NCBI GenBank assembly: GCA_965200315.1
Contig: OZ241362.1
Coordinates: 1,312,001-1,376,000 of the forward strand
DNA length: 64,000 nucleotides
Reading direction: 5' to 3'
DNA from: Candidatus Latescibacterota bacterium
GTDB taxonomy: Bacteria; Latescibacterota; UBA2968; UBA8231
Shown: positions 30,386 through 61,984 of the stretch, one piece after another
Position numbering within the stretch: position 1 is the first letter of the stretch
Layout: every line of letters begins with the position of its first letter
Notes under the pieces: generated by a model
The model's input: the letters and a program-made list of their open reading frames with translations, nothing else
What the model was told of the DNA's origin: nothing
Databases searched by the model: none
Program-made: the position numbers and the translations under genes

Positions 30386-33300
30386 TCAGCTAACCCCCAC
30401 CTCCGTCCCCTGTGCCAACTTCTCGCCCTCGAGCAAGTACTCCTCCCGCACCTCGGGCGCAATCGTCCGCCAGACCAAAAACCGCTTGCGCAGCACGTTG
30501 AGGAAGCTGGTGTTGAGCCGCTGCCAGCTCACCACATCGCCGCTTATGCGCTGCAAGTGCATCTCGATGCGGTAAATGCCTGGGATGTCGTCGGTCGGCA
30601 AAGTGCGCAGGAAAACTCGCTGGCTCACTCCCAAGTCGTAGGGCGCGAGCCACACCATCAGTTCCAGCAAATAGACCGGCTGCGCACCGCCCTTCTCCAA
30701 GTGGAAATCCACGCCCTCGGTCATAAAGTCGCCCACCGATCCCTCGCCATACGACGAGAAGACCCGGTGCAGGTACGCGCACGAGCCTAAAGCATCGCCC
30801 TTGCCCAGCGTAAAGGGAAAGTCAAAACGCCAATCGTCGCCATCGGGCGGGGGGAACTCCCAGCGCCGCGTCACGTCGGGCACGGCCATGGCCGCGGCCT
30901 TGCGCGCCGGATACAGGGTCGAGAGCACCACCACCACCATCACCACCAAGGTCGAGAAAATCGCCGACAGCGACGAGTAGTTGAGGAACATCCCGCCCAA
31001 CAGCGCGTAGTGCGCCAAAAGCAGCGTCGTCGTCTGCCCTACCAAATAGCCCAGCACCGCGCCGACGATGGCAAACACGAGGGCCTCGGCGATGAAGAGC
31101 GCGGCAATGTGGCTCGGTGCCAGCCCCACCGACGAATACACCCCGATCTCGCCGGAGCGCTCGTACACGGCCCCGAGCATGGTGTTGAGCACAATAAGTG
31201 AGGCGATCAACAAGGGCACGAAGAGATTGCCAATCCCGGCCAAGGAAGCCGATCCCATAGACGTGTACACCCGCACGCGGTCGCCGGCCCCGACAAAGAG
31301 CGGCACGGCCACCCGCGACACGAACTCCTCCACCTCGGCTAGCAAGGTCTCCCGGTCGGCGAATCCAGCGATGGCAACCGAGCGCAGCGTACCGCCCAAA
31401 TCGACGACCTGCTGGTAGGGCAAGAACGCCACGTTGTTGGCCATCAGATGGGTAAAGGTCTCAATCGCGGCCGTGTCCATCAGGCGCGGGTCCAAGTCGG
31501 CCATTTGCTCCATCTTCTTGGCCTCGGCGACCGTGTCCACCGGCATCGGACTCTCGTTGTCCAAGTCGCGCAGTCCGTCGATTACCTCGCCGTCGATTAG
31601 GCCAATGACCCGATAGGAACGCCCCATCAGCCATATCCGGGCCGCGCCCACATCCGCCGGGCCAATGCCCAAAATCTCCGCCATGGCCGCCGGCAGGATG
31701 CACACATCGCGCTCGCCGTCCGCAAACCAGCGGCTCTCCGGCCCCACCAACAGCTCTTCTAATCCCATCAGCGCACCCTCGCCCGCGGTCACCCCGAGGA
31801 GGGCTGAGGCAAAGCTCTTCTTCTGCGCCGGCTTGTGCTCAATGTCGATATAGGCCCGCTCGCCAATGACCTTGGACGTAATCCACGATCTCGGCAGTAC
31901 CTGCGCTTGGTCGCCAAACGCGCTTTTTGCATAGTCGAGCACGGATAGCTGCAAGCCCTTCCAGCCGCGATCGCGCAGCAGCGCACCCTCGTAGCTGGGC
32001 GCATTCGGGCGGGGAATCTGATAGAACTTGAGATAGCTCTGCACCGAGGTGAAGGCCTGGGCCGTAAAGGTCAAAAGCGTCAGGGTGACGACCGTTAGCG
32101 CGGTGCGCAACTTGCGCTTGCGGAGGTTGGAAATCCCCAGCGACGCGGCCGCGGCCGTGGCGCTGAGGCGACCGATGTCTGCTTCGTGGACACCGGCGGC
32201 GGCTCGCTTGCGCTGGCCGACGGCGCGGGTGAAGCGGCCTAAGATCATCAGCAGGGCCGTGCCGCCAATGGCGAAGATGACGAAGGCCAAAAAGATGATG
32301 TACGGCGACGAACTCAGCTTAAAGGCCGGGTGGATAAAGCGCATGATGAGGAAGATCGCCAAGAAGAAAAACGCCGCGCCCGCCACCTGGCGGCGGATGT
32401 CGGCAAAGCCAAAAAACAGCCGCTCGCAGCAAAACGAAAACGGCAGCAACAGCGCGAAGTAGAAGATGACCCCATATACCGTGTCGTCCGCAGTCGATTT
32501 GATGTCTGGGTAGCCCCGCCCTTCGAGGCCCCACGCCTTGCGCGTGGCCCGCTTAAACTCGCTGTAGCGCCGCGCCTGCAAGTGCTCTTCGGCCTCCAAC
32601 AGGGCCAAGCGCGCCTCTTCGTGCAGGTGCATAAACTTGTCGTTGCGCACCCCGTAGCGCGCCAACTGCTTGATCCGCACATCGTCGAGCACCCACATGT
32701 CGCGCGCGGCCGCGTACCCAGGATGCAGCACCACACCTTGATCCACGAGATAGCCGCGCCCGAGCGCCTGCTTCATCGCCGCCTCATCCACGTCGGCCGG
32801 GCGCACCGGCTCGGCCACCCATCCGGCCGGTGCGCCGCTCAGCAGGTAGCGTACGCCGAACAGGCTGGTGCTCATCAGAGCTTTGATCCGAGTGCCGGGC
32901 TGGGCGTACACTACTGAGGCGAGCGTTACCTTGCCCTCCTCATTGCTCTGCCTTTCGACAAAGTCGGCCCCCCACGACTGGGGTACGCCGTCGCGCTCGT
33001 CGAGTACGGTCACGTGGTCCAAAACCGACAAGTAGCGCGAGTCAACGGTCTCGAACAAACTCAGCGCCCGGCACTTGAAGAGCACTTGCAGCATCTCGTT
33101 TTCCCACCAGCCCCACGGATGCTCGGTCGGGTAGGTCTCGTCGCCCTCTTGGCCCATATCCGGTGCCGAGACAATCGCGCCGTAGGGATCGAGTTCGTAC
33201 GCGCGGATCGCGTTGCTCAGCCGGTTGCGCATGATGTCGAAGCGGAAGCGGCCCGCGTCGTCGGCTTCTTGGGCGATCAAGGTGCGGACCCCGCCGACCG

Positions 33301-34975
33301 AGTTCGGCCCGAGCTGCTGATAGGTCACCAGTGCTTGCGGCACCGGCTTTTTGGGCACGGCAAAATTGACGTCGCGGTCGAACCAATAAACTGCACCCGC
33401 CAAGCTGTGGCCGTAATCTTCCAACTCCAACTTGGTCGGCTTGAGCAGCTCGGCGTCGCGGCCCGCCCACGCCAACATGGCCGCGAGCGTCTGGATCTGC
33501 CGCGTGAGGTTTTGCACGTCCACAGCCTCTGGCAGGTCGAGCGGCGTGTCGATCCGCTCGCGCGCGTCGTTGGCCGTCGCCAAAGCCAACGCCTTCTGAC
33601 CGACGAAGGCCGCAGCCTCGCTGGCAAAGGCGAGCGGGATGGACATGAAGTTTTTCCACGTCCGTTTAGGTGGGGCAATGCCCTCGTAGTGGCGCGTGGT
33701 GTCGCCAAAGGTCTCTTCGACCGCCAGACTCAGCCGCTTGGAATAGGGGGTCAACATGTATTTGACGTAGTTGTCGGTGCGCCACTTGGGATTGTAGAAG
33801 GTGCCCATGCCAAAGCTCGCCGTGCGGTCGGCGTGGCTCGACAAGTCCAGCGATAGCATCAGGTCGAAGTCGATGCGCTCGGCTTCGCTCATGCGCTCGC
33901 GGAAATAGTCGCTGCGGCGACTGTGCCGGTAGAGGAAATCATTGATCCCGGACAGGCCCTCAAAGTGCCCAGAGGTCGCCAAAAAGAGCACCGAGTAGTG
34001 AGGGCGATGTTCTTTGAGCAGCTCCACTAGCTGGAGCAGGGCGACGATCCCGGCCGCGTTTTCCGCTCCGGGGGCGAGGGCTGGTACGACCGAGATAGCG
34101 TCGTAATAGGCTTGGATGACGATGGTTTGGTCCTGCCACGCCTGCGGCTTTTCGCGGCTTTTGGCCGGCAGCATCTCAGGCGATCCGGGCAGGTAGCCAT
34201 ACACGTTGTGCGCTTCCACGCCCTCCCAATCCATCCGTGCATTCAAGTGGACGGCGACCGGCCCGTCTTGCAGGCGCACCAACAGGTCGAACGCGTCTTG
34301 CCGCTCAAGCCAAAATCGCGGGATGTCAACCGGCACCTTGAGAAACTTGTCGGCGGCCTGCTCGCGGTTGACGCCGCCGTTGTCAAAAAAAACGATGGCC
34401 CTAGCCCCCAGCGAGGCGGCGTGGAGGTAGTTTTGGCCGCAGGCAAAGTCCAAGAGCACGACGCTGCCTTGCACGGGCTGGCCGTCCAATGCTTCGAGCT
34501 CGCCTTGGCCTCCGTAGATCAGCGGGCCGCGCACGCCATCCGGCCCCAGCGAGGATGTGCGCACGCCATTGGGCCACAAGCTGTAAAGCCTCTTGCTCTC
34601 GCCTTGCACCACCAACTCGCCGCCGCGATCTATGGGCACGGCCACCTTGAACGCCTCGCTCTGCACGTCCTCCAGCCCCAGTGCCTCAAACCGCTGGCGC
34701 ACAAAGTCGCGGGCCTGCCGCTCCCCGGCATAACCCGGCACCCGCGAACCAAAAGCAGCAAAGCGCGCGATCTCCGCGGCAATGTCCGCCTCGTCAATGC
34801 CGGCGACTAGGGCGCGAAGCTGGGCGGCTTGTGCGGGGTCTACCATCCGCGCTTCTACGGGCGGGTTGGGTGCCCAGCCGAAGAACCTGTTTACCGCTCG
34901 ATTGACTGCACCCGGATCGCCGAAACCGACGATCGCAATCATGGCGGCCGCGAACACCAAGAATAGTTTGGCCAT
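30386..34975 (-). CDS. M28 peptidase-like domain fused to an FtsX/MacB-like permease (1529 aa)
   Basis: N-terminal anchor, 'SRVPGY.G...A', PA-like insert, M28-like 'AYYD...APGA', multi-TM region, 'NLRKRKLRTALT', FtsX-type 'VYERSGEIGVYSSVGL.P..IA.LF..EA', 'YPARKAA'. Confidence 0.75.
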   Translation of the reverse strand: MAKLFLVFAAAMIAIVGFGDPGAVNRAVNRFFGWAPNPPVEARMVDPAQAAQLRALVAGIDEADIAAEIARFAAFGSRVPGYAGERQARDFVRQRFEALGLEDVQSEAFKVAVPIDRGGELVVQGESKRLYSLWPNGVRTSSLGPDGVRGPLIYGGQGELEALDGQPVQGSVVLLDFACGQNYLHAASLGARAIVFFDNGGVNREQAADKFLKVPVDIPRFWLERQDAFDLLVRLQDGPVAVHLNARMDWEGVEAHNVYGYLPGSPEMLPAKSREKPQAWQDQTIVIQAYYDAISVVPALAPGAENAAGIVALLQLVELLKEHRPHYSVLFLATSGHFEGLSGINDFLYRHSRRSDYFRERMSEAERIDFDLMLSLDLSSHADRTASFGMGTFYNPKWRTDNYVKYMLTPYSKRLSLAVEETFGDTTRHYEGIAPPKRTWKNFMSIPLAFASEAAAFVGQKALALATANDARERIDTPLDLPEAVDVQNLTRQIQTLAAMLAWAGRDAELLKPTKLELEDYGHSLAGAVYWFDRDVNFAVPKKPVPQALVTYQQLGPNSVGGVRTLIAQEADDAGRFRFDIMRNRLSNAIRAYELDPYGAIVSAPDMGQEGDETYPTEHPWGWWENEMLQVLFKCRALSLFETVDSRYLSVLDHVTVLDERDGVPQSWGADFVERQSNEEGKVTLASVVYAQPGTRIKALMSTSLFGVRYLLSGAPAGWVAEPVRPADVDEAAMKQALGRGYLVDQGVVLHPGYAAARDMWVLDDVRIKQLARYGVRNDKFMHLHEEARLALLEAEEHLQARRYSEFKRATRKAWGLEGRGYPDIKSTADDTVYGVIFYFALLLPFSFCCERLFFGFADIRRQVAGAAFFFLAIFLIMRFIHPAFKLSSSPYIIFLAFVIFAIGGTALLMILGRFTRAVGQRKRAAAGVHEADIGRLSATAAAASLGISNLRKRKLRTALTVVTLTLLTFTAQAFTSVQSYLKFYQIPRPNAPSYEGALLRDRGWKGLQLSVLDYAKSAFGDQAQVLPRSWITSKVIGERAYIDIEHKPAQKKSFASALLGVTAGEGALMGLEELLVGPESRWFADGERDVCILPAAMAEILGIGPADVGAARIWLMGRSYRVIGLIDGEVIDGLRDLDNESPMPVDTVAEAKKMEQMADLDPRLMDTAAIETFTHLMANNVAFLPYQQVVDLGGTLRSVAIAGFADRETLLAEVEEFVSRVAVPLFVGAGDRVRVYTSMGSASLAGIGNLFVPLLIASLIVLNTMLGAVYERSGEIGVYSSVGLAPSHIAALFIAEALVFAIVGAVLGYLVGQTTTLLLAHYALLGGMFLNYSSLSAIFSTLVVMVVVVLSTLYPARKAAAMAVPDVTRRWEFPPPDGDDWRFDFPFTLGKGDALGSCAYLHRVFSSYGEGSVGDFMTEGVDFHLEKGGAQPVYLLELMVWLAPYDLGVSQRVFLRTLPTDDIPGIYRIEMHLQRISGDVVSWQRLNTSFLNVLRKRFLVWRTIAPEVREEYLLEGEKLAQGTEVGVS

Positions 34976-35052
34976 GAAATTCGCTTTGTCTTTTAAGTGG
35001 GACGAGCGGCTGTCAAGGTAGGGCGGATCAACTCGTACCCTGCTCGAGATTC

Positions 35053-35301
35053 TCAGTCATCTATGAGAAGCATATCCGCGAGTGGTAGGTCTGTAGCGTA
35101 CTTTCTGGAGTCTGAAGAGCACGGCTGTACTAGAAAAGTGCCAAGCGCATGTTTCTTTGTTGTCTGTCGGATCGCCTCTATCTCGCTGGAGTACGCCCCG
35201 ATGACGCGGTGATCTTTGATGACAATCACCTTGCCCTCGTAGTGAGCGGCTAGCTCTGCTTGGTGGTCTAGGTAGTATTGAAACTCATCTCTTAGTGCCA
35301 T
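35053..35301 (-). CDS. DUF5678-like small protein
   Basis: 'EFQYYLDHQAEL...YEGKVIVIK...VIGAY....EA...GTFLVQ'; lower GC than neighbours. Confidence 0.6.
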   Translation of the reverse strand: MALRDEFQYYLDHQAELAAHYEGKVIVIKDHRVIGAYSSEIEAIRQTTKKHALGTFLVQPCSSDSRKYATDLPLADMLLIDD

Positions 35302-35367
35302 GGGTATTTCCTTTGGCTACTTTAGCGAGCAAAGAACCGTTCTGCTTCTATACTCTCAGCTTACCTG

Positions 35368-35396
35368 TTTATAGCGACAGCACAAGCGGCTGTCAA
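35368..35396 (-). promoter_or_regulatory. Sigma70-type promoter
   Basis: TTGACA-17 nt-TATAAA. Confidence 0.55.
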
Positions 35397-35414
35397 GATA
35401 CACCATCGCGCCAC

Positions 35415-37319
35415 TCACCCGTGAAAATAGGCGTGCCCCTCGCCCATAAACCAGAAAATATCCGCCAAATACGACAATCCAATCCCCAAGAAATACCCAG
35501 CGATCAATCCCATAAAAAACGGCCGCGCCTGACGGTACGCCGCAATGCCGCCATAGCGCATGATCGCACTCTTGGCCACCCACGCCAGCAAGACCGAAAA
35601 CGCAATGAGTCGGGTCATCCACAGCGGGGCTACTGCAATGCCCACCGGATGCAGCGGCCACCAGTGCAAGCGGTACTGGAGGAAGGCCAAAATGGAGTAC
35701 GCCACCATGCCGATCCCAAAGTACGACAGCTTGTTCCAATCGGTCGGCCACGGATCGTTGAAGTGGCGAATCACCCCGTTGTACGCCATGCCGCCGGCAC
35801 CGCCACCAGCGATAAAGTACCAAGAGCCGAAATTGCCCGCACCGTATTTGTAGCACAGCGAGAGGACAAAGTACAGACAAGCAGTAAAGCCTACGACCGC
35901 AGCAATACCCAGCGCCAAGGCCATGGACCGGCGAATCCGGTACAGTTCGCCGAGCCGGGCGCCGTGTGCGGCCGCTGGCATAAAAAGCGATTGCACATCC
36001 CCGAACCAAGTATAGGAAACCCCCAGCGCCACCAAATTGTGCCCACCGATACCCGTGCCGGTTATCGCCAGCGCAAAAGCCTGCGCTCCCACCGGCGGCG
36101 TCAAAAAATAGACCCCGGCCTGCACCACCAGCCGCGTGATGCCGTAGTACGCGACCAACACGCCAAAGACAAAAAGCGCGGCAATGTGCAGATCCATCCC
36201 AGACCGCCACAGCCAGCCGAGGATATAGGCCAACGCGGCCATGAATCCGCAGACCGCCGTGCGATAGGAAACCATTTCCTCGCGGTCGTCTATCGTCCGC
36301 CGTCCCCCCAAGGCTTGACGCACGACCGCCACTAGATGGCCCCGCGCCATCCACAAGCTCAACAGCACCATGGCCGTAAATCCGCCCCACGCCTGCCAAG
36401 AAAGCGACTGCATCCCCCAGACAAAAGCGTCGGGCCGCGTCACATCGTAGCCGATGCGGTTGGTAATGCCCTCTTGTACCACAGCCACCAAATAAAAGAA
36501 CACGATGCTGAACGAGACGCTGGTGCTGACCAAGTACATAAAGCCGACCACCGGGAAGTAGAGCATCAGGCTGATGGTGGGAAACTCCCGGCTCAGTTGC
36601 AGATGGACGGCGTGGTTGAAGTTGATTTTGGGAAAGCCGATGTAGAACGAGCCAATGATGTTGAACAGGATCATCCCCAGTGGAACCGCCGCGCCGATCC
36701 AAAAGCCCTTAGAGCGCACAATCGCCCGCCCGTCGTCGTCGATCAACAACCGCGGCATCTCCATCAGGGGGAAAACCAGCCGCTCGTGCTCGACCCATTG
36801 GCGGCGGAAGATCACCACCAAGCAAAAGCAGGCGAAATACACGGTCAGGATCAGGCTCAACAGCCAAAATAGCGGTCCGATCCAGACCTCAAACGGCAGG
36901 GCTTGGCCCTTGGGCAGCCCTTCGTAGAACCAGCGCATGGCGTCGCCGTCGGCGCGGGGCACGACCCAATCGGGCAGGTAGGGATGGATGTTGCCGGCCC
37001 AATCGTTTTCCGGGGTGGCTCCGTAGTACGGCGATGAAATGATCGCCAGCAAGGTGCCGACGATAAAGGTCGGAATCCCGGTCGCCGCCAAGCCCATAAT
37101 CACGATGACAGCGAGTTCGGCGGGCCGCAACGCCCAAGTGGGCCGCACCCACCTCACCAGCCCATTCGCCAGCAAAATCACCACAAAGCAAAAGCCGGCG
37201 CTAGTCGGAAAATACGACCACGTAATCTCCGAAGAGCGCACCATCCAAATCGAATAGGGCGCTCCCATGACGATGGCCATTACGACCACAATCCCCAACA
37301 CGGCCGCACGCAAAGTCAC
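35415..37319 (-). CDS. Polytopic membrane protein, DUF6785/DUF6784-like (OPT-related)
   Basis: Many hydrophobic segments; 'RRQW.EHERL.FPL', 'WWPLHP.G', 'RYGG...YR.ARPFF.GLI.G'. Confidence 0.7.
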   Translation of the reverse strand: MTLRAAVLGIVVVMAIVMGAPYSIWMVRSSEITWSYFPTSAGFCFVVILLANGLVRWVRPTWALRPAELAVIVIMGLAATGIPTFIVGTLLAIISSPYYGATPENDWAGNIHPYLPDWVVPRADGDAMRWFYEGLPKGQALPFEVWIGPLFWLLSLILTVYFACFCLVVIFRRQWVEHERLVFPLMEMPRLLIDDDGRAIVRSKGFWIGAAVPLGMILFNIIGSFYIGFPKINFNHAVHLQLSREFPTISLMLYFPVVGFMYLVSTSVSFSIVFFYLVAVVQEGITNRIGYDVTRPDAFVWGMQSLSWQAWGGFTAMVLLSLWMARGHLVAVVRQALGGRRTIDDREEMVSYRTAVCGFMAALAYILGWLWRSGMDLHIAALFVFGVLVAYYGITRLVVQAGVYFLTPPVGAQAFALAITGTGIGGHNLVALGVSYTWFGDVQSLFMPAAAHGARLGELYRIRRSMALALGIAAVVGFTACLYFVLSLCYKYGAGNFGSWYFIAGGGAGGMAYNGVIRHFNDPWPTDWNKLSYFGIGMVAYSILAFLQYRLHWWPLHPVGIAVAPLWMTRLIAFSVLLAWVAKSAIMRYGGIAAYRQARPFFMGLIAGYFLGIGLSYLADIFWFMGEGHAYFHG

Positions 37320-37401
37320 TTTGTACCGCCCCGATGCAAGCGATGATTTACAGCGTTCATTTTTTTGTATATTTAATGTTTCGCATCAATAGTACTGAAC
37401 C

Positions 37402-41469: not shown

Positions 41470-41480
41470 CGTGCGCCCCC

Positions 41481-45133: not shown

Positions 45134-45212
45134 AAAAAGAGGAGCTAGACGGAAGGTCCAGCTCCTCGCAATGAGATGTCCTGCCATACGTCGTGATATC
45201 CAGTCCGGCGAC

Positions 45213-46431: not shown

Positions 46432-46435
46432 GCCG

Positions 46436-50869: not shown

Positions 50870-50886
50870 GGTGTCAATCTCCTAGC

Positions 50887-53808: not shown

Positions 53809-53859
53809 GGCAGCTATCCTCATTCAGTGTAGAGATTCTGTCTTCAGTCGCATTCCAAC

Positions 53860-54720: not shown

Positions 54721-56362
54721 AAGTGCCTCGGCGCGCCTTATCGCTTCCTTCTATCCCAACCTCGTACAGATAGAGCCCCGGCTCGACAACCTGACCGCTA
54801 CCATCGCGGCCGTCCCATTCAAACTGATAGGTCCGGGCGCTTCCAGTCTGCGCCAACTGGCGAACTGGCCGACCGGTCAAGTCGTAAATTTTTAGCACGA
54901 CCTCCCGGCCCGCTTCAATGTTGCCGACTACAAAAGCAAAGCGCACATACTCATCAGCAAACGGAGAGAACGGACGCGGCTCCACCTGCACTGCGCCCAA
55001 AAGCTGCAACGGCGTTCCCGCAGCCAGCACCGTCCAAGTGGCACCCGGCATTTCCTGCCCCTGCTGCCAGTTCACGTAGCCGTCTCTGTCGCCTTGGGCT
55101 TTGTTGCCAGCCTCAAAGCGCATGGTGGTCTTGTCGCGCACAAAGAGCGCTTGCCCCTCCATTTCGACAGTCGCCATCGCGTTGATTCGCTCGCTAGGTG
55201 TAAGCTCTATCAGTATCCCCTCCCGGTCCGATGTCGATCCCCAAGTGTAATCCTCTGTAGGCACGAGTTCTCTACCATCGACGCGCACGGCTTCTACGCC
55301 GAGCAAGGGACCTTGTACTCGCAAGAGATCGATCCCGTAATCATCGACGCCAGCCGCGATCTCCACTCGGTAGCTCAGCATCGTTTCCTCGCCCTTGCGC
55401 AGCGAATCGGATACGACCACCGCCGCCAAGAGCTGTTGGGCTACCAAGACGGAATCGTAGTCAATGGCAATGCGCTTGAGCGCCGGGCTGACAAAGGGGG
55501 CCGAGTTCGTCAGGTGGGCCCGGTATGCCAACCTCACGACCGGCTCGTCTCCGCTGTAGAAAAATTCCCCGTCCGTGTGCGCCGCAACGCTTCCCCAAGG
55601 CTTTTCTGCACTCTCTGCGGTAGTTCCGCGCACCTGCAACTCAATGCCCGTGCGCTCCGGGTGCTCTGTTTGCCAGCGGATCTGCCCTACGTTGACCGGG
55701 GTAGGCGGGGCGAAGCTATCCTCTATGAAGCCTTCGCTAACGTAACCCACGCCGAACACCTCAATTTCGCCGATGGCGACCCAGTTGCTGCGGTCTTGGC
55801 GGATTATTGTCAACCGTACGAAGCGACCCGCGCGCGGGATTGCCTCTCCGCGCTCGTTGGTCGCGGCCCAAGTAGAATCTGCACTCGTATCTACATTGAG
55901 GACGAAATTGTCCGGCTGTTCCGCCAAAAGGTGCCAGACTTGCGGTGCCACCTGAGCGGCTGTTTCGAGCCTGTATCCACGCACGAAATACTCGGGCTGG
56001 TTCAGCGCCGTCTCGCCAGCTAGCAATCGCACGCGCTTGATCGCCCGGTCCAAGCCGAGATCGATGGTAAACTGCTTGTCGAACACGTGATTAGTGCCCG
56101 AGATCCACTCGCTCCTCACGAGGTCAATCGCGCCGTCGGTTAGCGGCACAGGCTTGTCAAAATCGTCTATCACTGATCGTCCTAAAGCTACATTTATATT
56201 CTCGTCCAAATGCGCCAAGATGACGAGGCTATCTGGATGCACCTGTACGCCTTGGGTCGTTCCCAAGGCAAATGTATCGACCGCGTCCACTACCCAAGTC
56301 CTTAATTCGGCACGGCACGGACTGAATTCGAGCAAGAGCAAGAGGACAACTAGCCTCAGCAC
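54704..56362 (-). CDS. Secreted discoidin/F5-8-type domain protein with FlgD-Ig C-terminal domain
   Basis: 'FTIDLG..R.I.RVRL', 'GRFVRL', 'IGEIEVFG'; C-terminal 'PFSP...IYDLTGR.VR.L...WDGRD..G..V.PGLYLY'. Confidence 0.7.
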   Translation of the reverse strand: MLRLVVLLLLLEFSPCRAELRTWVVDAVDTFALGTTQGVQVHPDSLVILAHLDENINVALGRSVIDDFDKPVPLTDGAIDLVRSEWISGTNHVFDKQFTIDLGLDRAIKRVRLLAGETALNQPEYFVRGYRLETAAQVAPQVWHLLAEQPDNFVLNVDTSADSTWAATNERGEAIPRAGRFVRLTIIRQDRSNWVAIGEIEVFGVGYVSEGFIEDSFAPPTPVNVGQIRWQTEHPERTGIELQVRGTTAESAEKPWGSVAAHTDGEFFYSGDEPVVRLAYRAHLTNSAPFVSPALKRIAIDYDSVLVAQQLLAAVVVSDSLRKGEETMLSYRVEIAAGVDDYGIDLLRVQGPLLGVEAVRVDGRELVPTEDYTWGSTSDREGILIELTPSERINAMATVEMEGQALFVRDKTTMRFEAGNKAQGDRDGYVNWQQGQEMPGATWTVLAAGTPLQLLGAVQVEPRPFSPFADEYVRFAFVVGNIEAGREVVLKIYDLTGRPVRQLAQTGSARTYQFEWDGRDGSGQVVEPGLYLYEVGIEGSDKARRGTFVVAY

Positions 56363-56363
56363 T

Positions 56364-57020
56364 TCAGAATAGCAGTTTCTGGGTCAGGCTGGTCACCACG
56401 GCGATGGCAAGGGCTTCCTCCAACTCCTTAGAGTTGAAAATCATGACAATGCCGGCATCAACCGGGCTTTTCGTGCTCACTTTGCCGGTTTTGAGATCCT
56501 TAACCAAGACCTCGACCTGCACTCTTTGCGTCTGCGGGGAGAATACTTTGCGTACCCGCTGACTGGTAATCAGCGCCGTGCCGCTAATTTCCAAGTCGGC
56601 CTCGTCCGAGTCCTCCGACACTAGCGTAAAAGGATTGTTCACTTGCCGTACGCTGTCTTCGTCTAGCACTTCGACCCGATCCGTCTGCGTGAGGATTCGC
56701 ACCTTGTCCTTGCGGAGTTCGCGCAACAAGGCCCCAGACAAGTCCTCGATGCGCGAAGGCCGAGTAATCTGCACCAAGCGATTTCCCTGACTAGCGAGGG
56801 CGTTAGTAATGTACTGAGTGTCTTGGCTACCGGCCGAATTGGCGGTCCTCGGATCGACCACGTTGGCCTTGCTCTCGACCGGGAATTCCTTGACGTATAT
56901 TTTGACCGGCATCGACGGCGGGTTGGGCAAACTGGTGTCCTTGAGTGTCTCGTATTTCAAAGTACAGGCCGTTAAGCCGAGAAGCAGCGTCATTCCCAAG
57001 TATTGCGCCATCTTTTTCAT
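56364..57020 (-). CDS. Uncharacterised lipoprotein (possible CsgG/LpoB-like alpha/beta fold)
   Basis: Lipobox 'LTAC'; 'ADLEISGT...V.VLVKDLKTGKV'. Confidence 0.6.
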   Translation of the reverse strand: MKKMAQYLGMTLLLGLTACTLKYETLKDTSLPNPPSMPVKIYVKEFPVESKANVVDPRTANSAGSQDTQYITNALASQGNRLVQITRPSRIEDLSGALLRELRKDKVRILTQTDRVEVLDEDSVRQVNNPFTLVSEDSDEADLEISGTALITSQRVRKVFSPQTQRVQVEVLVKDLKTGKVSTKSPVDAGIVMIFNSKELEEALAIAVVTSLTQKLLF

Positions 57021-57800
57021 CTACTTGTTCTCCACCCAACGCACTCCGTGATCGACCTTGAAGTCGAATTTCAGATCGGTAAATTCCACTGGATTGCCGT
57101 ATCCTACTTGAAAGCGATCAAAGGCCAGAATGAAGTCGTTTACTTCGAGAGTGAATGACTTGGTTTCCGCAGGCAGCGGTGGAAAAGTCAGCTTGCCGAC
57201 ATACCTAGAGCCTTTGCGCACGGGCTTTTCTCGGTGGTACGCGCTTTTAGTCCAGATTGGTCCACGATCCAAGCTGGCGTGATAGCGCACATTGCCTTCT
57301 TGCCCCCCCCACTTCAAATAGGAATAGTCGTAGTACTCGTCCTTGGCGTACCAATTCCCCGCCCCTTGGCCACAGAGCAGTCGGCTGCCGTCGTCCAAGC
57401 GAAGAACGGTCTGCGTGGGGTCTAGCTCTACCCGCTCCCGAGTGCGGTTGATCACCGTCATTTCAAAAACGGTCCACAGAGGCGGCGTATAGTCCAAGCC
57501 GGGGATTTTGACTCCCGTGAGTGTATAGGGCGTGAAGCGGACGTCGTATTCAGCGTCGAGCATGGCATCGTCGTAGAACTTGACCTTGACTTGCACCCCT
57601 TGCTCGCTCCACACGACCGAGCTGTCGATTGGATCGATGTAATAGGTTTCTCCATCGGGCAGGACCGGCTCTAGCTCGATGAAGTACTCCTGCTGCGAAT
57701 GCGATTCGAGGGATCTGAGGGTAGCGCACCCTCCGGCGGCCAGCGCCAAGCATAGGAGGATGTGGATGTATTTTGTGATGGCTCTCATGTGCATTCGCAT
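57021..57800 (-). CDS. Uncharacterised lipoprotein (paralog of 45213-45980)
   Basis: Lipobox 'AGGC'; shared motifs with its paralog. Confidence 0.7.
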   Translation of the reverse strand: MRMHMRAITKYIHILLCLALAAGGCATLRSLESHSQQEYFIELEPVLPDGETYYIDPIDSSVVWSEQGVQVKVKFYDDAMLDAEYDVRFTPYTLTGVKIPGLDYTPPLWTVFEMTVINRTRERVELDPTQTVLRLDDGSRLLCGQGAGNWYAKDEYYDYSYLKWGGQEGNVRYHASLDRGPIWTKSAYHREKPVRKGSRYVGKLTFPPLPAETKSFTLEVNDFILAFDRFQVGYGNPVEFTDLKFDFKVDHGVRWVENK

Positions 57801-57801
57801 C

Positions 57802-60800
57802 CTAAAAGGGTGATATCAACTCTACGAAGAGGATGCCCTGCTTGGAGTCGGGCCGTCCTGCATGGCTATAGTCCCGCCGTGTGCGCTGATAGCCGAAGAA
57901 TATCGAATTGTCGCGGATGCCAAAGTAGTCTGCGGTGATGCTCAGCATGGCCAGATAATCGGTCTGGCTATACGTCCCGGTCTGGCTGTACGCCCCGATT
58001 TGGCTGTACGTCCCGTCCTCCGAGGCGCGATCCCAGTGCTTAAACGGCAGCAAGGGTAGCCCTTGTATGCCTAGCTGAAAGCTAGTCTTGGGCGTGAGCT
58101 TGTACTCTCCCATTACTATGGGGATGAAGTCGCTATACGATTTCCTCGGCGCATCTTCGCTGTCAACCTGCTCAAAGATCGTCCGATGCTTCAACTTAGG
58201 CGTGACGCTGAAGGCACCCCAGCTACGGGTGTAGTCGATCTTGTTGACAATAGAAAAACGCGAGCGCACGTCTTCGGGCTGCAATAGTCCGCTGCCGTCC
58301 TCAAGCTCTATTTCGGCTTGGCTGTTACGCTGCCACAGGAAACCGTTTTCAATGTTGAAGCCGCTAAAACCTTTATAGGTGCTGTCTAAAAAGAGGAGTT
58401 GCACAAAACTGTCGCGCATCAACAACTCGTCCGGCGTCGCCGGTCGCCAAAAACCCGCGCGTTCGGGCGGACCGTCGGGCTCGTTAAACCAGTTGATGAC
58501 CTCGACATCGTCAATGGGCACTCGGTACACGTAGGTGTGATCCGGGATGTCGTCTTTGACCTGCTTGGCGTCGTAGTTAATTTTCAGTTGGCCGACGCCG
58601 CGCTTCTCCACCGAGTATGCGTAGCGGAAGTACAGCGCCTCGGATTTACCGGGGCCGGCGATCTGACTGTTGTCGTAGCGGCCTAGAGTGATGAACTTGC
58701 CCAAGCGCCCCAAGCGGTCGTAGCGAATGAAGATGTGCTGGCCCTTTTGGTCGCGCGGGTAGGGGTAGTCCGGCTTATCGTCGTTCTCGCGAAAGTCGGG
58801 TACATTGTTGTTGTTAAAGTCGATGCCATAAGCAAATTCGGGTGGCTCCGAATCGTAGGTCAGAAAAGCCTCTTCCCAGTCCACAATGAAGTTCTCATTG
58901 CGATCCATATCGGGGATGTTATCGACGTTCTCGTCGAGGCCCGGATACACTTGAGCACCGGGATTACCTGGATAAAGCGAACGCGGCTCGGCAGTCGCCG
59001 TATCGTCGCTGTGGCTGTCGGGTAAGGTGTCGTGATCGTCGTTGTCTTCGTGGATGGGGAACTCCTCGGTGACCGTAGTGATTCTCTCGCCAGGCGCAGG
59101 CTGGCCGTCGTAGTGAAAGGCCATGCCGCCGCGATAGCTATCGTACCCGCCGCCGTAGTCGGGCTCCATGCGGTATATCTCCCCACCCAGTGACAGGCCG
59201 GCGGCTAGGTCCTTGACGCCCTTGACCCACCACGCAAAAGCGCGTTCACTGCTGCGTTGGCCTTCGTTATTGCCGATTGGGAACATGAAGTTTTGCAGAT
59301 TGTGCGCCACTTCGCCGCTGAGATCGAGCCCTACCAAATCGACCTGATAGTTGATCGAGGCCAAGCTCTGTCCGGTGGGAATGCCGTAGTCAAAAGAAAT
59401 TAGCTGCCGATTGGCACCCGTGCCGTCGCTGCCATCAGAGCGGACCACAGTATAATAGAGATCCTCGTCTTCGTCTGTGTACCACTTAAATGGACGCCGG
59501 ATGGCCCGCTCACCAGCACTGGCGATGGGAGCGGGCCAAGCCGACTCGGTGATAGCCGCATTGCCTCGGCGATCGATATTGAAGAAGTCGTGAGTTTGGC
59601 TAACGCCGACCCGGTAGTCGCCAGCCACATCGGCGACAAAACGCGCCGAACGCACCGTCACGTCCGGCGGGAGAACGAAGGTGTAAACCACCGGCACCTT
59701 GCCCTCGGCCTCGCGCCCACCGCCAGTGTGAACGGCACCGCCTTCGGGCGGCCCGGCTTCTAACAGCGGATCGTAGTCCGGGTCGTCGTCGAGGCTGGTC
59801 AGGCGCACCGGCTCTGTGTTGCGCTCGCCCTCAAGGACGATGTCCACACCATAGACAATGGCATTGGCCTGGGCATCCTCGGGCGAGTCGTCGGCCACAA
59901 AGACGCGGATGGTCTTGGGGCCGAGCATCTCATAGGGCAAATCGCCGCGCCAAGCACTGGAGCGCGACAGGGCCGGCGCAGCCATGATCTGGTTGATTAG
60001 CGTCCCGCCAATACTGGCGAAGCGACCTACTTCGTGCTGATAGTGGCCGCCAAAGAGCAGCACCGGTGAATTATCCCAAGCGTCATCGCCCTCTTGACCA
60101 AACGCCCATTTGGAAAACAACTGGGTACCAGAGTGATCGCCACCGCGCGAGTACAACAGAGTTGCCCGGTCGCGCTCCTTGTAGTTTATATCCATGCGCA
60201 GCACATTCAGCTTGCTGTTGACCAGCGTAAGTGGTGTGAAAATGGTGCGCACATCCGTACCACCGCCCGGTGATCCCACGTTGCCCAACGTGGCAATCCA
60301 GTGCAAATCCTTGTGAGTATAGTGGCCGACCCGGAACGACCGATACTTGTGGTCGATATAACTAGCCCCACTAAAGTCATTACCACTGCGCGACTCTTCT
60401 ATCGTCAGGAGTCGCCGATAGCCGCCGCCCATGTAGTTGCCTATCCGGTCCCAACCCACATTACGGGTCCTTAGCGTCCGGCCCGACGGGGTGGCCCAAG
60501 CAACCGTCTCTCGGTAGTACGAAATGTACTTTTCGGCGGCGTAGTTGAGATAGGGGACGCTAACGGCGGTGTTGAGGAAGGCCCTCCCTAATCCTCGATC
60601 ATAGCGGTCTTGGGGACCGCGCAGGAAAGGGGGGCGCTTTTTCCACGGGGGATCTTGCGGCGTACCAGGTGCGGGGTTGTAATAGGGCAGCGGACCGCCG
60701 GATTCGGGGTGGCGCTGCGCATCCGCCGGCGCGGATAGGCCAGCGCAAACCAGCGCGGACAAAACCACCCAGCGCTCGACGACACGGCATTTTAGAAAAC

Positions 60801-60807
60801 ACAGCAT
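57802..60807 (-). CDS. Uncharacterised ~1000-aa predicted outer-membrane protein with Asp-rich repeats (paralog B)
   Basis: Signal peptide ending ADA; collinear with paralog A; C-terminal 'LFVELISPF'. Confidence 0.7.
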   Translation of the reverse strand: MLCFLKCRVVERWVVLSALVCAGLSAPADAQRHPESGGPLPYYNPAPGTPQDPPWKKRPPFLRGPQDRYDRGLGRAFLNTAVSVPYLNYAAEKYISYYRETVAWATPSGRTLRTRNVGWDRIGNYMGGGYRRLLTIEESRSGNDFSGASYIDHKYRSFRVGHYTHKDLHWIATLGNVGSPGGGTDVRTIFTPLTLVNSKLNVLRMDINYKERDRATLLYSRGGDHSGTQLFSKWAFGQEGDDAWDNSPVLLFGGHYQHEVGRFASIGGTLINQIMAAPALSRSSAWRGDLPYEMLGPKTIRVFVADDSPEDAQANAIVYGVDIVLEGERNTEPVRLTSLDDDPDYDPLLEAGPPEGGAVHTGGGREAEGKVPVVYTFVLPPDVTVRSARFVADVAGDYRVGVSQTHDFFNIDRRGNAAITESAWPAPIASAGERAIRRPFKWYTDEDEDLYYTVVRSDGSDGTGANRQLISFDYGIPTGQSLASINYQVDLVGLDLSGEVAHNLQNFMFPIGNNEGQRSSERAFAWWVKGVKDLAAGLSLGGEIYRMEPDYGGGYDSYRGGMAFHYDGQPAPGERITTVTEEFPIHEDNDDHDTLPDSHSDDTATAEPRSLYPGNPGAQVYPGLDENVDNIPDMDRNENFIVDWEEAFLTYDSEPPEFAYGIDFNNNNVPDFRENDDKPDYPYPRDQKGQHIFIRYDRLGRLGKFITLGRYDNSQIAGPGKSEALYFRYAYSVEKRGVGQLKINYDAKQVKDDIPDHTYVYRVPIDDVEVINWFNEPDGPPERAGFWRPATPDELLMRDSFVQLLFLDSTYKGFSGFNIENGFLWQRNSQAEIELEDGSGLLQPEDVRSRFSIVNKIDYTRSWGAFSVTPKLKHRTIFEQVDSEDAPRKSYSDFIPIVMGEYKLTPKTSFQLGIQGLPLLPFKHWDRASEDGTYSQIGAYSQTGTYSQTDYLAMLSITADYFGIRDNSIFFGYQRTRRDYSHAGRPDSKQGILFVELISPF
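57961..58014. repeat. 3 x 18-bp in-frame tandem repeat (GTYSQI/GAYSQT/GTYSQT)
   Basis: ggtctggctatacgtccc / ggtctggctgtacgcccc / gatttggctgtacgtccc. Confidence 0.8.
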
Positions 60808-60885
60808 GAAAACCCCTCGCGGGTCATATTAAAGCGGGCGAAAAACATATATTTGCCAAAGCTCGCGCTCGCGGGTCGGGTCAAG

Positions 60886-60928
60886 AAAAAAAAACGGGAA
60901 GCAGGCGTCAAGCCCACTTCCCGTTTTT
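60886..60928 (-). terminator. Intrinsic terminator after the CBM9-like gene
   Basis: Minus strand CGGGAAG-TGGGC-TTGAC-GCCTG-CTTCCCG followed by T9. Confidence 0.85.
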
Positions 60929-60953
60929 GTATAACCTATCCAAAAGTCATTGA

Positions 60954-61901
60954 CTATTGGACGAAGGTCTCCTTTACGCGGCCCCAAGAATCTTCTTCGA
61001 CCGCGGTCCCTGACGGACCAGCCGGCGTATCCACAAAGACATAGTTGGCGAACTCGGACATGTTGCCGCCCGCCCAGGCCACGCATTGAATCTGACCACC
61101 GTAGGCATCTTCGCCATCGGGATCAATCGGCAACCAAGCAAAGCCCATCTCAGAGCCAGTCGTAGGGGCTTCAAAGAGGTTACCGTTGCGCAGGAAGGTC
61201 TCCCACGGCAACTTGCCTTCAATCACGTAGTCCGCATCCCCCTCGTCGCCAAACTCGTCGCCGGCGTCGCGGAAGCCGTACTCAAACCCCTCAAGCGCAT
61301 CGGGATCGTGAACATCCACGCGCGCCATATCCACGGTGGTGATTAAGCAGACAGACCACTCGTGAGAACCAAAAGGCAGGGCCATGAAGTTGACGACATT
61401 TAGGTTGACGAACTCTTGGGTTGGGTCGCCTCCTGGGTGATCGTCATTGTTCAGGTCGAGGTAAAGAGACACGGAGTCGCGTTCCCACCAAGCCCGAGCC
61501 TCACCACCCCCCTCGGTGTCGCGGATGTTATCGCTGATCTCGGCGATGTAGTACAGGGCTTCGTCATCCCAAGCCTGCAAGATCGTCGATTCAAAATCGG
61601 CGTTAGTGCGCCCCTCGCCCGCGACTTCGGTCTCGCCGTTTTCGCTGAGCTGGTTAGCGCTTACTTCGCTGGACCCCTGCTCTTGATTCCGCCAGCCAAA
61701 CTCTTGGCCATCGAGCTGGATTTGGTCTGGCGAGCAGGGAAATTCCAGCGCACCAGCCCACTCGTCAGCAACGGTTGCGCGGTCGCCGTCAAGCGTGGGG
61801 GCTTGAGTAAATTTGGGCAAGTCAAAGTAGCGCACGGGTGGCTGGGCATTGGCCAGCGTGGTAAAGCAAAAGGCCGCGGCCAAAAGGGTCAACTTCTTCA
61901 T
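60954..61901 (-). CDS. Secreted CBM9/DOMON-like sugar-binding protein with C-terminal 'TAVEEDSWGRVK' tail
   Basis: Signal peptide ending ANA; 'APTLDGD..EW', 'AWDDEALY....I.D', 'W..DSV.LYLD', 'YVIE..LPW'; RBS AAGGAG. Confidence 0.75.
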   Translation of the reverse strand: MKKLTLLAAAFCFTTLANAQPPVRYFDLPKFTQAPTLDGDRATVADEWAGALEFPCSPDQIQLDGQEFGWRNQEQGSSEVSANQLSENGETEVAGEGRTNADFESTILQAWDDEALYYIAEISDNIRDTEGGGEARAWWERDSVSLYLDLNNDDHPGGDPTQEFVNLNVVNFMALPFGSHEWSVCLITTVDMARVDVHDPDALEGFEYGFRDAGDEFGDEGDADYVIEGKLPWETFLRNGNLFEAPTTGSEMGFAWLPIDPDGEDAYGGQIQCVAWAGGNMSEFANYVFVDTPAGPSGTAVEEDSWGRVKETFVQ

Positions 61902-61955
61902 TACTGCATCTCCTTAGCTGTGAGAAGTGGACGAAAGACTTTGAATGAAGGATTC

Positions 61956-61984
61956 ATAATAAATGCCCGCCAAAAGGTTGTCAA
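61956..61984 (-). promoter_or_regulatory. Near-consensus sigma70 promoter at the head of the envelope operon
   Basis: TTGACA-17 nt-TATTAT. Confidence 0.7.

Follow-up and report, generated by a model that had tools for sequence, protein, structure and literature searches.

We examined a 64,000-nt stretch of the genome of a Candidatus Latescibacterota bacterium (GCA_965200315.1, contig OZ241362.1, forward-strand positions 1,312,001 to 1,376,000; hereafter the window, numbered from its first letter), in which a first-pass annotation had reported a minus-strand array of envelope genes from 61.9 to 39.9 kb and had read it, with further genes below, as one undescribed system of about 20 genes energised by the proton-motive force (PMF). 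The claimed gene content and order were borne out by open reading frames (ORFs) and by Pfam and NCBIfam scans. The core unit, at 45.2-60.8 kb, is smaller and less singular than first claimed: it holds two giant outer-membrane (OM) beta-barrels, two beta-sandwich lipoproteins, a protein with a C-terminal domain (CTD) of the type seen in type IX secretion (T9SS), a PorV-like barrel, a TPR protein, an ExbB and two ExbD. The features of this core and of its flanks are as follows (aa, amino acids).

61956 to 61984, minus strand: sigma-70-like promoter match 5′ of the CBM9-like gene (TTGACA, 17 nt, TATTAT; 11 of 12 matches)
60954 to 61901, minus strand: CBM9-like secreted protein, 315 aa, with signal peptide (PF06452, CBM9_1, E 1.8e-10)
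60890 to 60928, minus strand: terminator-like hairpin and T-run between the CBM9-like gene and barrel B (17 pairs, 8 of them G-C)
57802 to 60807, minus strand: giant OM beta-barrel B, 1001 aa, with signal peptide and C-terminal Phe (family profile 1191 bits)
57021 to 57800, minus strand: beta-sandwich lipoprotein B, 259 aa (lipobox Cys; start overlaps the barrel B stop)
56364 to 57020, minus strand: second lipoprotein, 218 aa (lipobox Cys; no Pfam or NCBIfam family)
54704 to 56362, minus strand: surface-protein candidate with a T9SS-type CTD, 552 aa (FlgD_ig, 32 bits, cut-off 27)
53860 to 54720, minus strand: PorV/PorQ/PorP-like small OM barrel, 286 aa (NF033709, E 2.4e-11, 43.8 bits, cut-off 90)
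50887 to 53823, minus strand: giant OM beta-barrel A, 978 aa (modelled with AlphaFold2 (AF2); no Pfam or NCBIfam family)
47597 to 50869, minus strand: exported TPR protein, 1090 aa (TPR_6, 157 bits; YbgF/CpoB-like units)
46874 to 47548, minus strand: ExbB/TolQ-type proton channel (PF01618, E 6.4e-29, 100.7 bits)
46436 to 46855, minus strand: ExbD/TolR-type protein 1 (PF02472, E 2e-25, 89.7 bits)
46012 to 46473 (probable start 46431), minus strand: ExbD/TolR-type protein 2 (PF02472, E 2.6e-29, 102.3 bits)
45213 to 45980, minus strand: beta-sandwich lipoprotein A, 255 aa, at the usual position of TonB (AF2 pLDDT 89.7)
45139 to 45167, minus strand: hairpin and T-run closing the core unit (12 pairs)
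43481 to 45313 (ORF; likely ATG at 45133), minus strand: SurA/PpiD-like double-parvulin peptidyl-prolyl isomerase (PPIase) lipoprotein (Rotamase_2, E 1e-25)
62075 to 63103, plus strand: divergent 342-aa exported protein (no family; kept in orthologous loci)
63100 to 64000, continuing to 64296 past the window, plus strand: TonB-shaped DUF4159 protein, 398 aa (PF13709, E 1.1e-8)

The array is tightly spaced, as expected of the single operon that had been proposed for 61.9-39.9 kb, and start and stop codons abut or overlap at several junctions; however, the two longest sites combining a hairpin with a T-run divide it after the CBM9-like gene and after the last lipoprotein. The second of these hairpins (45167-45139) reaches the probable PPIase ATG (45133), and the mature PPIase starts with its lipobox. 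The promoter-like site at 61956-61984 is the best of a scan that as a whole was not above shuffles, and because the terminator scan was not above shuffles either (20 found vs. a mean of 20.5), the hairpins at 60928-60890 and 45167-45139 count only jointly with RNA data. Of the words sampled from a 9.9-kb stretch, 95-98% were present in four metatranscriptome libraries from one study, whose RNA contigs include pieces of 12.9-14.0 kb, with 2-30 differences, that span barrel B to the TPR gene. The CBM9-like gene lies upstream of the core and appears to be transcribed separately from it, being covered by short contigs of its own (word depth 310-639 vs. 21-35 for the long downstream contigs, a weak measure) that end at 60912-61079 and 61604-61938, beside the hairpin and the promoter-like site; adapter letters stand at some of these ends (e.g. 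60912 and 60968), and the high-depth contigs end at 61895-61938. Around the second hairpin, at 45093-45162, the RNA contigs of three of the four runs come to an end, and in run X1 a long contig crosses the first hairpin to 61034. Note that RNA contigs cannot prove transcripts, strands or levels, that DNA carry-over is possible, and that low or broken cover below 45.1 kb was not taken as silence. With this in mind, the contigs give a weak hint of a strongly expressed monocistronic message from the CBM9-like gene, and an equally weak one of a single long transcription unit from barrel B to lipoprotein A, with a lower level beyond.

The two giant barrels are paralogues (35% identity over the whole length, E 5e-160), both with a signal peptide and a C-terminal Phe, and neither matched a Pfam (E<=0.01) or NCBIfam (E<=0.1) family. 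The AF2 model of barrel A, built with 26 homologues (mean pLDDT 68.7, pTM 0.67), is a very large beta-barrel of ~26-30 long strands by the DSSP list, with an inserted beta-sandwich at residues ~239-362, long Asp/Asn-rich loops and no plug. Foldseek placed Deinococcus SlpA first (8ae1; E 1.1e-10, TM-score 0.17), followed by MtrB, LptD and TonB-dependent transporter (TBDT) barrels, with all matches at E 1.1e-10 to 8e-6 and TM-scores of 0.13-0.24; in VIA-align the SlpA match (Z 13.7, 408 residues aligned, rmsd 8.0) is tied by ordinary porins, and AlgE (Z 13.0) and PgaA (Z 11.5) follow. Judging from the model, these matches represent generic barrel likeness, in which the largest known barrels give the best coverage. 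The SlpA_C family (PF21620) reached 22.7 and 25.1 bits (cut-off 35) in two of the six barrel homologues scanned and did not match the window barrels.

That the cluster holds no classical TonB-dependent receptor, as the first-pass annotation had seen, is upheld by family searches and Foldseek alike: the barrels have no Plug (PF07715) or TonB_dep_Rec match, the same Plug model detects 15 Plug domains elsewhere in the genome, and TBDT barrels, which have 22 strands, match only at TM-scores of 0.18-0.22. We likewise rejected the barrels as the T9SS translocon SprA, since they lack a SprA_N (PF14349) or TIGR04189 match and measure 978 and 1001 aa vs. ~2000-2400 aa; Foldseek maps them onto neither SprA nor ordinary TonB-dependent receptors. 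Homology between the giant barrel and the PorV-like barrel was also discarded (hhalign probability 1.1%). Ahead of the first strand, a segment at ~36-80 that is disordered in the model carries the invariant residues Y52, N54 and G77; one possible reading is a partner-binding box. A side observation concerns the invariant Asp/Asn-rich loops of the giant barrels (D576-D585, D606-D624 and D644-D661, within ~576-663), which are modelled with low confidence and which we take to resemble calcium-binding thrombospondin-type repeats.

The barrel family is widespread and kept in a recognisable gene order. In a search of 1.84 billion cluster representatives its alignment profile matched 1090 at E<=0.001 and 351 at E<=1e-30, and species-representative genomes yielded at least 517 confirmed barrel stretches, at identities of 24-64%. 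Homologues carry names from Latescibacterota, Gemmatimonadota, Handelsmanbacteria, Zixibacteria, KSB1 and Ignavibacteriales metagenome-assembled genomes (MAGs), those in Ignavibacteria-labelled MAGs being ~35% identical, and every source name shown was ‘hypothetical protein’. Within the phylum, the barrel family is present in 71 of 121 sampled genomes (40/40 of the bacterium’s own family, 0/29 and 0/13 in two others) and the lipoprotein in 69 of 121, with presence or absence of the two in agreement in 14/14 families. An order of CTD protein, PorV-like barrel, giant barrel, long TPR, ExbB, ExbD, sometimes DUF4159, and lipoprotein recurs in loci L039 and L048 (both labelled Latescibacterota), L044 (Zixibacteria), L046 (Zhuqueibacterota), L057 (KSB1) and L049, and a shorter form without ExbBD runs DUF4159, CTD protein, barrel, TPR and lipoprotein (L035-L040, L055, L070). 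Of 79 loci, 17 had full flanks and no close kinship to the window; among these, a CTD gene stands upstream in 14, a TPR gene downstream in 15, the lipoprotein in 13 and ExbB in 5, and a DUF4159 gene lies on either side in 12 by hand count. In orthologous loci (53-64% identity; L007, L008, L010, L011, L013) the PPIase comes after the lipoprotein, and a DUF6785-type or 659-aa membrane protein after the PPIase. Thus the core genes co-occur in related genomes with their order kept, and ExbB, two ExbD, TPR, OM barrel, PorV-like barrel and CTD protein form a conserved unit by synteny across phylum labels.

Within its own 5.36-Mb, single-contig genome the module is strongly expanded. The barrel-family profile gave 43 ORF matches, 39 of them of at least 600 aa and spread over 28 loci. 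By profiles iterated from the other window proteins, with length filtering, the CTD-protein family numbers 105-110 paralogues of the N-terminal part and 145-151 CTDs; the other families count 28 CBM9-like proteins, 31-33 SurA-like PPIases, 35-41 DUF6785 proteins, 15 A/B-type lipoproteins, 12 PorV-like barrels and 8-9 DUF4159 proteins. A typical locus runs from a CBM9-like gene, its usual first gene, through a lipoprotein, 1-3 CTD proteins and 1-3 barrels to a PPIase and/or a mid-sized TPR protein. We scored as linked any family gene within 15 kb of a giant-barrel gene in this genome and compared the counts with 1000 random placements: none reached the observed values for the lipoprotein (13/15), CBM9-like (24/28), PPIase (25/31) and CTD (82/105) families, and one reached that for DUF6785 (16/35). 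The claim of some 20 genes in one system did not hold, as M28-FtsX (1/7), the 659-aa protein (2/5) and SUMF1 (4/10) were not above chance. Nor is this a single lineage-specific machine as first supposed, given 39 barrel genes in 28 loci of one genome and a family that spans several phyla in the FCB group (Fibrobacteres-Chlorobi-Bacteroidetes). As an aside on the CTD paralogues, a PcfJ-like gene on the opposite strand splits a row of three CTD genes in another barrel locus (L085:4504-6060; genome 5.2825-5.2841 Mb) and may be a mobile insertion.

The motor genes match their families, with PF01618 and PF02472 above cut-off for ExbB and both ExbD, respectively. Direct reading shows the ExbD copies to be an unlike pair, with a transmembrane Asn in copy 1 and, in copy 2, an Asp that we take to be the proton-binding residue. 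Unlike pairs of TolR-like proteins are also described in the passages available from PMC12204202. The TPR protein matches TIGR02795 at 215 bits in seven stretches, PorW/SprE at 118.6 bits (cut-off 250) and GltC weakly (NF033756, E 0.0013, 17.5 bits vs. a cut-off of 450), and is collinear end to end with the 1081-aa TPR protein of a second motor locus (E 2e-76). The genome encodes seven ExbD and four ExbB, of which three are accompanied by a TPR protein of ~1080-1090 aa, a lipoprotein and a DUF4159 protein; the four ExbB loci are as follows.

Motor locus 1, the window: ExbB and two ExbD, TPR, lipoproteins, two barrels, with DUF4159 divergent
Motor locus 2, 3.93-3.95 Mb: three barrels, TPR, DUF4159, lipoprotein, ExbB, two ExbD
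Motor locus 3 (L089), 1.50 Mb: CBM9-like protein, lipoprotein, PorV-like barrel, TPR, ExbB, ExbD, DUF4159; no giant barrel
Ordinary Ton locus, 1.70 Mb: ExbB, two ExbD, TonB_C protein

The divergent DUF4159 gene at 63100 lies just beyond the range of the original finding, and its product reads as a short cytoplasmic tail, one transmembrane helix, a Pro/Lys/Arg-rich linker and a DUF4159 head. An atlas search with it returned DUF4159 clusters, and its only solved relative is the uncharacterised PDB entry 4i66 (E 2.7e-18). Among 37 non-identical homologues, 31 have the N-terminal transmembrane helix; 30 of these 31 have at least five Pro in the next 80 residues, and 21 carry a His in or near the helix. 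A conserved transmembrane His (SHLS motif) is described for force transducers in the excerpts of PMC12204202 to which we had recourse. DUF4159 was the only Pfam match of the protein at E<=5, with no TonB_C, TolA C-terminal or vWA domain, and the genome has TonB_C at four other sites. The DUF4159 gene follows ExbD, the usual place of TonB, in L089 and in loci that carry Zixibacteria, Zhuqueibacterota and KSB1 labels. The cluster was said to have no TonB, and this stands insofar as there is no TonB_C domain; but with a protein of transmembrane helix, Pro-rich linker and DUF4159 head encoded next door, and DUF4159 in TonB’s place elsewhere, ‘TonB-less’ is true of the domain and not of the architecture.

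Lipoproteins A (45213-45980) and B (57021-57800) are paralogues as well (35% identity, E 1e-38). AF2 models lipoprotein A with confidence (pLDDT 89.7) as a beta-sandwich that has a helical insert; the model had no Foldseek match at E<=0.001, and its best VIA fold match, YcdA (4r4g, Z 8.8), reflects generic beta-sandwich likeness. Its perfect co-variation with the barrels and its place at the end of the motor make this lipoprotein a candidate gate or plug. The second, 218-aa lipoprotein is found only in orthologous loci (19 profile matches, one in its own genome), and the PPIase is a linked accessory gene.

The 552-aa protein and the PorV-like barrel give the cluster a likeness to type IX secretion. 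At its C-terminus the former matches FlgD_ig above cut-off (32 bits vs. 27) and CHU_C (19.1 vs. 27) and TIGR04183 (17.2 vs. 23) below it, with further below-cut-off likeness to Por_Secre_tail and the PorU C-terminus; among its paralogues, which join F5/8 type C (discoidin) domains to CHU_C/FlgD_ig C-termini, CHU_C reaches 36.1 bits and TIGR04131 25.7 bits (cut-off 35). Its earlier label ‘discoidin’ fits the paralogues (F5_F8_type_C, E 1.8e-8) but not the protein itself, which has no such match at E<=0.01. The 286-aa barrel also stays below family cut-offs (NF033709, 43.8 bits vs. 90; PorP_SprF, 16 bits vs. 22.3). A complex model of this barrel with the 91-residue CTD, predicted from our own alignments of 15 and 14 rows, scored 0.85 vs. 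0.08 for the best control, passing a mark that 58 of 80 solved complexes and 2 of 110 mismatched pairs reach; at least 82% of contacts are common to the runs, the partner has a pLDDT of at least 79, and the modelled contacts include invariant barrel residues E106 and W132 and CTD residues P67-G68-Y70. The model supports, but does not show, that the CTD binds the PorV-like barrel. Structures of T9SS substrate-carrier complexes have been solved, according to the part of PMC10994853 on hand, and for this reason the pass may reflect likeness to known complexes; type B CTD proteins, in the sections of PMC9143113 available, sit on PorP-like barrels.

As had been noted, no T9SS core lies in the cluster itself, but its CTD and PorV-like barrel are of T9SS-like families, and a true SprA is encoded elsewhere in the genome, by a 2130-aa ORF at 3.73 Mb (621 bits on TIGR04189) among housekeeping genes. 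SprA_N occurs in 113 of 121 phylum genomes, families without giant barrels included, and the barrels are therefore an accessory system outside the translocon. Searches with no positive control detected neither GldM (TIGR03517, PF12081) nor GldL (TIGR03513) nor an above-cut-off GldK in this genome and in four genomes of other phylum labels, and, likewise with no positive control, GldM_1st (PF12081) in none of the 121 phylum genomes (0/26 in the phylum of genome G004). What powers the phylum’s T9SS translocon is a side question raised by these two counts, 113/121 for SprA_N vs. 0/121 for GldM_1st. We considered ExbBD-TPR-DUF4159 as the missing T9SS motor; this idea is weakened by families f2 and f3, which keep SprA without barrels or lipoprotein, and by the lack of a positive control in the Gld searches.

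Taken together, we consider it highly probable that the core encodes part of a real and conserved envelope machine in which giant barrels are linked to a PMF motor, and the barrel module is probably a major, hitherto unrecognised route across the cell envelope. As to what this machine does, we tentatively put first, while stopping short of calling it probable, a PMF-gated uptake through the barrels fed by surface lectins. The 45.2-61.9 kb region and the divergent DUF4159 gene at 63.1 kb would jointly be one of three motor loci of a modular multi-copy system. CTD proteins would exit via the genome’s ordinary SprA translocon and stay bound at the surface, on the PorV/PorP-like or the giant barrel, as lectin-like capture subunits, and the giant barrel would be the conduit. 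LptD and MtrB act with a partner protein inside the barrel; LptE fills LptD, and a Plug protein serves SprA. On the pattern of these two, LptE and SprA’s Plug protein, the lipoprotein may gate or plug the giant barrel from the periplasmic side. The ExbB-ExbD motor would open this gate through the DUF4159 transducer, with the long TPR protein as a scaffold, and a few motors could serve many barrels, much as one TonB serves many receptors. The most likely cargo flow would be inward, as uptake of glycans or glycoconjugates, with handover to polytopic inner-membrane proteins of the DUF6785 type. In favour of uptake are a large plug-less barrel and the 39 barrels of this genome vs. its 15 Plug domains; the predicted lectin-type partners (F5/8 type C and CBM9) and the DUF6785 proteins, which stand next to orthologous loci and are enriched near barrels, point the same way, as do the sugar-type ABC components among other neighbours.

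Several results weigh against this account. The direction of transport is pure inference. Confidence in the barrel model is moderate (pLDDT 68.7; TM-scores to known barrels of 0.13-0.24). PorV-like barrels (1/12), DUF4159 genes (3/8) and ExbB genes (2/4) lie near giant barrels no more often than by chance in this genome, and one motor locus (L089) has no giant barrel. There are 15 lipoprotein genes for 28 loci, only about half of which hold one, and a universal plug role is doubtful for that reason. The window copy of the DUF4159 protein is without the transmembrane His that 21 of 31 homologues carry. Finally, in a Pfam scan of 57 otherwise unlabelled neighbour ORFs from 23 loci, covering the 25 commonest families, we found no glycoside hydrolase, lyase or peptidase among those families and one sulfatase.

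We also weighed a broader form of the uptake reading, which we regard as a speculative possibility: that the machine is a fifth proton-motor machine shared by several FCB phyla (Latescibacterota, Zixibacteria, KSB1, Zhuqueibacterota and Ignavibacteria-labelled MAGs) and the main importer in Latescibacterota. Such a machine would combine plug-less barrels, a removable lipoprotein gate, an ExbBD motor acting via the DUF4159 head and a periplasm-spanning TPR protein, and lectins held at the surface by T9SS parts.

The strongest rival, possible but doubtful in our estimate, is that the barrels are a T9SS accessory and import nothing: they would anchor or secondarily translocate CTD cargo, while the motor releases, positions or propels adhesins, the outcome being adhesion or gliding such as that of SprB or Agl-Glt. 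Its model is the anchoring of type B CTD cargo by PorP/SprF-like barrels, as far as PMC9143113 was available. In favour of this rival, 82 of 105 CTD genes lie within 15 kb of a barrel and usually directly upstream of it, the CTD resembles T9SS sorting domains and the PorU C-terminus, and the CTD/PorV-like complex model stood far above its control. Moreover, every T9SS class appears to have a parallel here (giant barrel, PorV-like barrel, PPIase, a TPR protein with a weak PorW/SprE score, and a 5:2-type motor; from the portions of PMC10994853 and PMC9143113 accessible to us), enzymes are few in the loci, and GldM_1st was detected in none of the 121 phylum genomes while SprA is in 113 of them, a comparison that, as for the GldKLM searches generally, has no positive control and counts less for it. 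What tells against this rival is distribution and build. Barrels and lipoprotein are absent from f2 (0/29) and f3 (0/13), where SprA is kept (28/29 and 13/13), and the T9SS therefore does not need the barrels; a barrel of ~26-30 strands is oversized for an anchor; and the conserved adjacent polytopic inner-membrane proteins would be superfluous for Sec/T9SS export.

A Tol-Pal-like role in envelope maintenance appears unlikely. The OM would then be tethered or remodelled by the motor along with a DUF4159 protein akin to TolA and a giant TPR protein akin to CpoB, and barrels and lipoproteins would be the anchors. This reading would account for the TolQR-like motor, for a TPR protein made of YbgF/CpoB units (TIGR02795) and for the OM lipoprotein gene that follows the motor, and varied Tol-like operons with new transducers are described in the portion of PMC12204202 that was accessible. 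However, none of the 20 proteins scanned has a TolB or an OmpA/Pal-type domain; three motors, 39 barrels and a patchy distribution (71/121) are unlike housekeeping; and the tight linkage with lectin-like CTD proteins is left aside by it.

Polymer export is, in our view, more unlikely still. BcsC, PgaA and AlgK/AlgE are exporters that pair a periplasmic TPR scaffold with an OM barrel, and the cluster would on this reading release a polymer that the CBM9 and discoidin proteins organise at the surface. The TPR-barrel pairing and the carbohydrate-binding modules of the loci fit, as do AlgE and PgaA among the fold matches, except that the likeness there is of the general barrel kind. The loci have no recurrent gene for a synthase, a glycosyltransferase or Wzx/Wzy, the 57 neighbour ORFs holding one GT2, and exporters of the BcsC/PgaA/AlgK type use, to our knowledge, no ExbBD motors. 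Least credible of all is that the genes have no joint function and are unrelated envelope genes packed together as neighbours by descent, which suits the unrelated modules of the lower third and the hairpins that split the array but is already contradicted for the core by an order kept over several phylum labels at identities of 24-64% (which argue against close kinship as its source), by barrel/lipoprotein agreement in 14 families, by linkage above all 1000 random placements and by start/stop overlaps.

The remaining part of the reported range, 30.4-43.5 kb, holds the following genes.

Within 30386 to 37319, minus strand: M28, PA and FtsX fusion protein, 1529 aa (Pfam)
35415 to 37319: membrane protein with DUF6785 and DUF6784 (Pfam, 342 and 77 bits)
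30.4-43.5 kb region, plus strand: two NHL proteins
30.4-43.5 kb region: FGE-sulfatase (SUMF1) lipoprotein and Recep_L_domain lipoprotein
41481 to 43460, minus strand: 659-aa membrane protein (no Pfam family at E<=5)

We rejected the M28-FtsX, SUMF1, L-domain, NHL and 659-aa proteins as parts of the system, as they show no linkage beyond chance. The two membrane proteins had been labelled ‘OPT-like’; this label fell away, as there is no OPT family match and neither has a solved relative; the likeness between the two is only faint (E 0.003 over 95 residues). Among seven large M28-FtsX genes, five adjoin a DUF6785 gene and one is fused to it in a protein of 2128 aa, which makes this pair a module separate from the barrel core; the other M28-FtsX/DUF6785 sites are at 0.368-0.378, 1.296-1.302, 1.810-1.817, 4.024-4.033 and 4.687-4.697 Mb and often include a 659-aa-type protein too. 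M28-FtsX plus DUF6785 is thus an uncharacterised inner-membrane module in its own right. Beside the M28-FtsX gene, the stretch at 26549-30340 has low GC (0.47 at 28-30 kb vs. ~0.6) and encodes a Schlafen/AlbA_2 protein, a 627-aa N6_N4 DNA methylase with PKD and a PIN-domain protein; it has the look of a defence or mobile island that was acquired. At 17540-19804, 10 kb from the finding, lies an ordinary TonB-dependent receptor (CarboxypepD_reg plus Plug) with one of the genome’s 15 Plug domains. Among the neighbours of the barrel loci, the largest further recurrent group is FG-GAP/UnbV_ASPIC (CRTAC1-like), with 12 of 163 unlabelled ORFs over 28 regions and 7 of the 57 ORFs of the Pfam scan, including L088:3282-4961 just to the right of the window and members at 11 other barrel loci. 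The same 57 ORFs include sugar-type ABC permeases (5 ORFs) and binding proteins (3 ORFs) and are near-empty of enzymes, and an enzyme content like that of polysaccharide utilization loci (PULs) was accordingly rejected.

Should the broader reading of a fifth proton-motor machine prove right, the main high-capacity import route in Latescibacterota would be a giant-barrel machine and not the TonB-dependent receptor. About 39 barrels and about 105 surface partners fill a sizeable share of the genome, and the cargo is therefore probably central to feeding or attachment. Few systems are known to us that carry inner-membrane energy to the OM (Ton, Tol-Pal, Agl-Glt and T9SS), and each opened a field. 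Here such a motor is tied by cross-phylum gene order to an unmodelled barrel family, a DUF4159 head and T9SS cargo-handling parts, and the system offers a test bed for the force gating of plug-less barrels and for T9SS-type domains outside Bacteroidota. The system had been put forward as undescribed, and literature searches agree insofar as they returned no description of the barrels or of the whole system (supplements could hold locus tables), while likeness to the motor part is seen in published TPR-TolQ-TolR-TolR-transducer operons and in the core of Agl-Glt; the searches also returned nothing on DUF6785, DUF4159 only in a Pfam paper, and nothing on Latescibacter with type IX secretion.

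Set against known systems, the barrels come closest in fold to SlpA, MtrB and LptD, the best matches of barrel A, and their homologues match SlpA_C weakly; the TM-scores of 0.13-0.24 are low, however, and both an SLH domain and a cytochrome partner are absent here. The SusC/SusD PULs of Bacteroidota likewise consist of many paralogous loci, each with an OM transporter and surface glycan binders, served by few shared motors. In contrast to these, the barrel loci have no recurrent genes for SusC, SusD, glycoside hydrolases or regulators, and the surface proteins carry T9SS-type CTDs in place of lipid anchors.

The Agl-Glt core of Myxococcus comprises AglR/Q/S, GltD (a TPR protein of 1191 aa), GltE, the TonB-like GltG and GltC (Luciano et al., 2011, PMC3169522, in the part available). 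By that description it shares one TolQ-like and two TolR-like proteins, an exported TPR protein of ~1100-1200 aa and a Pro-rich transducer with the cluster, and it too occurs in multi-copy clusters whose role outside gliders is unassigned (PMC3169522). The likeness that the first-pass annotation drew from the layout of ExbB, two ExbD and TPR thus stands by description, with only the weak GltC match at the level of sequence. Differences are that GltG has TonB_C and FHA where the cluster has DUF4159, and that the Glt OM proteins are small barrels with no CTD or PorV-like part (PMC3169522, same portion).

A class of force transducers of unassigned function with vWA heads, described in 2025, is encoded with a TPR protein, a TolQ-like protein, two unlike TolR-like proteins and a transducer built of transmembrane helix, linker and head (PMC12204202, in part). 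The gene grammar is the same as here, and many DUF4159 homologues, though not the window copy, share the transmembrane His of that class; the head is DUF4159, set apart from vWA by Pfam only, the window transducer gene runs divergently at a distance of 14 kb, and ExbD has a lipoprotein after it. The passages of PMC12204202 at hand mention no giant barrels, CTD or PorV-like barrels, and its supplements may list such loci; the lipoprotein and DUF4159 are likewise unmentioned in the passages of PMC12204202 and PMC3169522, as are giant barrels and CTD proteins in the latter.

With the T9SS, on the portions of PMC10994853 and PMC9143113 available, the cluster shares T9SS-type CTD proteins beside a PorV/PorP-like barrel, for which the complex model supports binding, a giant barrel, a PPIase, a TPR protein with a weak PorW/SprE match and a PMF motor. 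It differs in that its motor is ExbBD and not GldLM, its CTD falls below the type A and B cut-offs, its giant barrels are not SprA, and the whole is missing from families that keep SprA. The Ton system, finally, resembles it in the ExbB/ExbD families (here with two ExbD), in a Pro-rich single-pass protein that accompanies the motor in related loci and in many barrels per few motors. In contrast to Ton, the cluster barrels are larger and lack Plug and TonB_dep_Rec, the head is DUF4159 instead of TonB_C, and the system has further integral parts in its 1090-aa TPR protein and its beta-sandwich lipoprotein.

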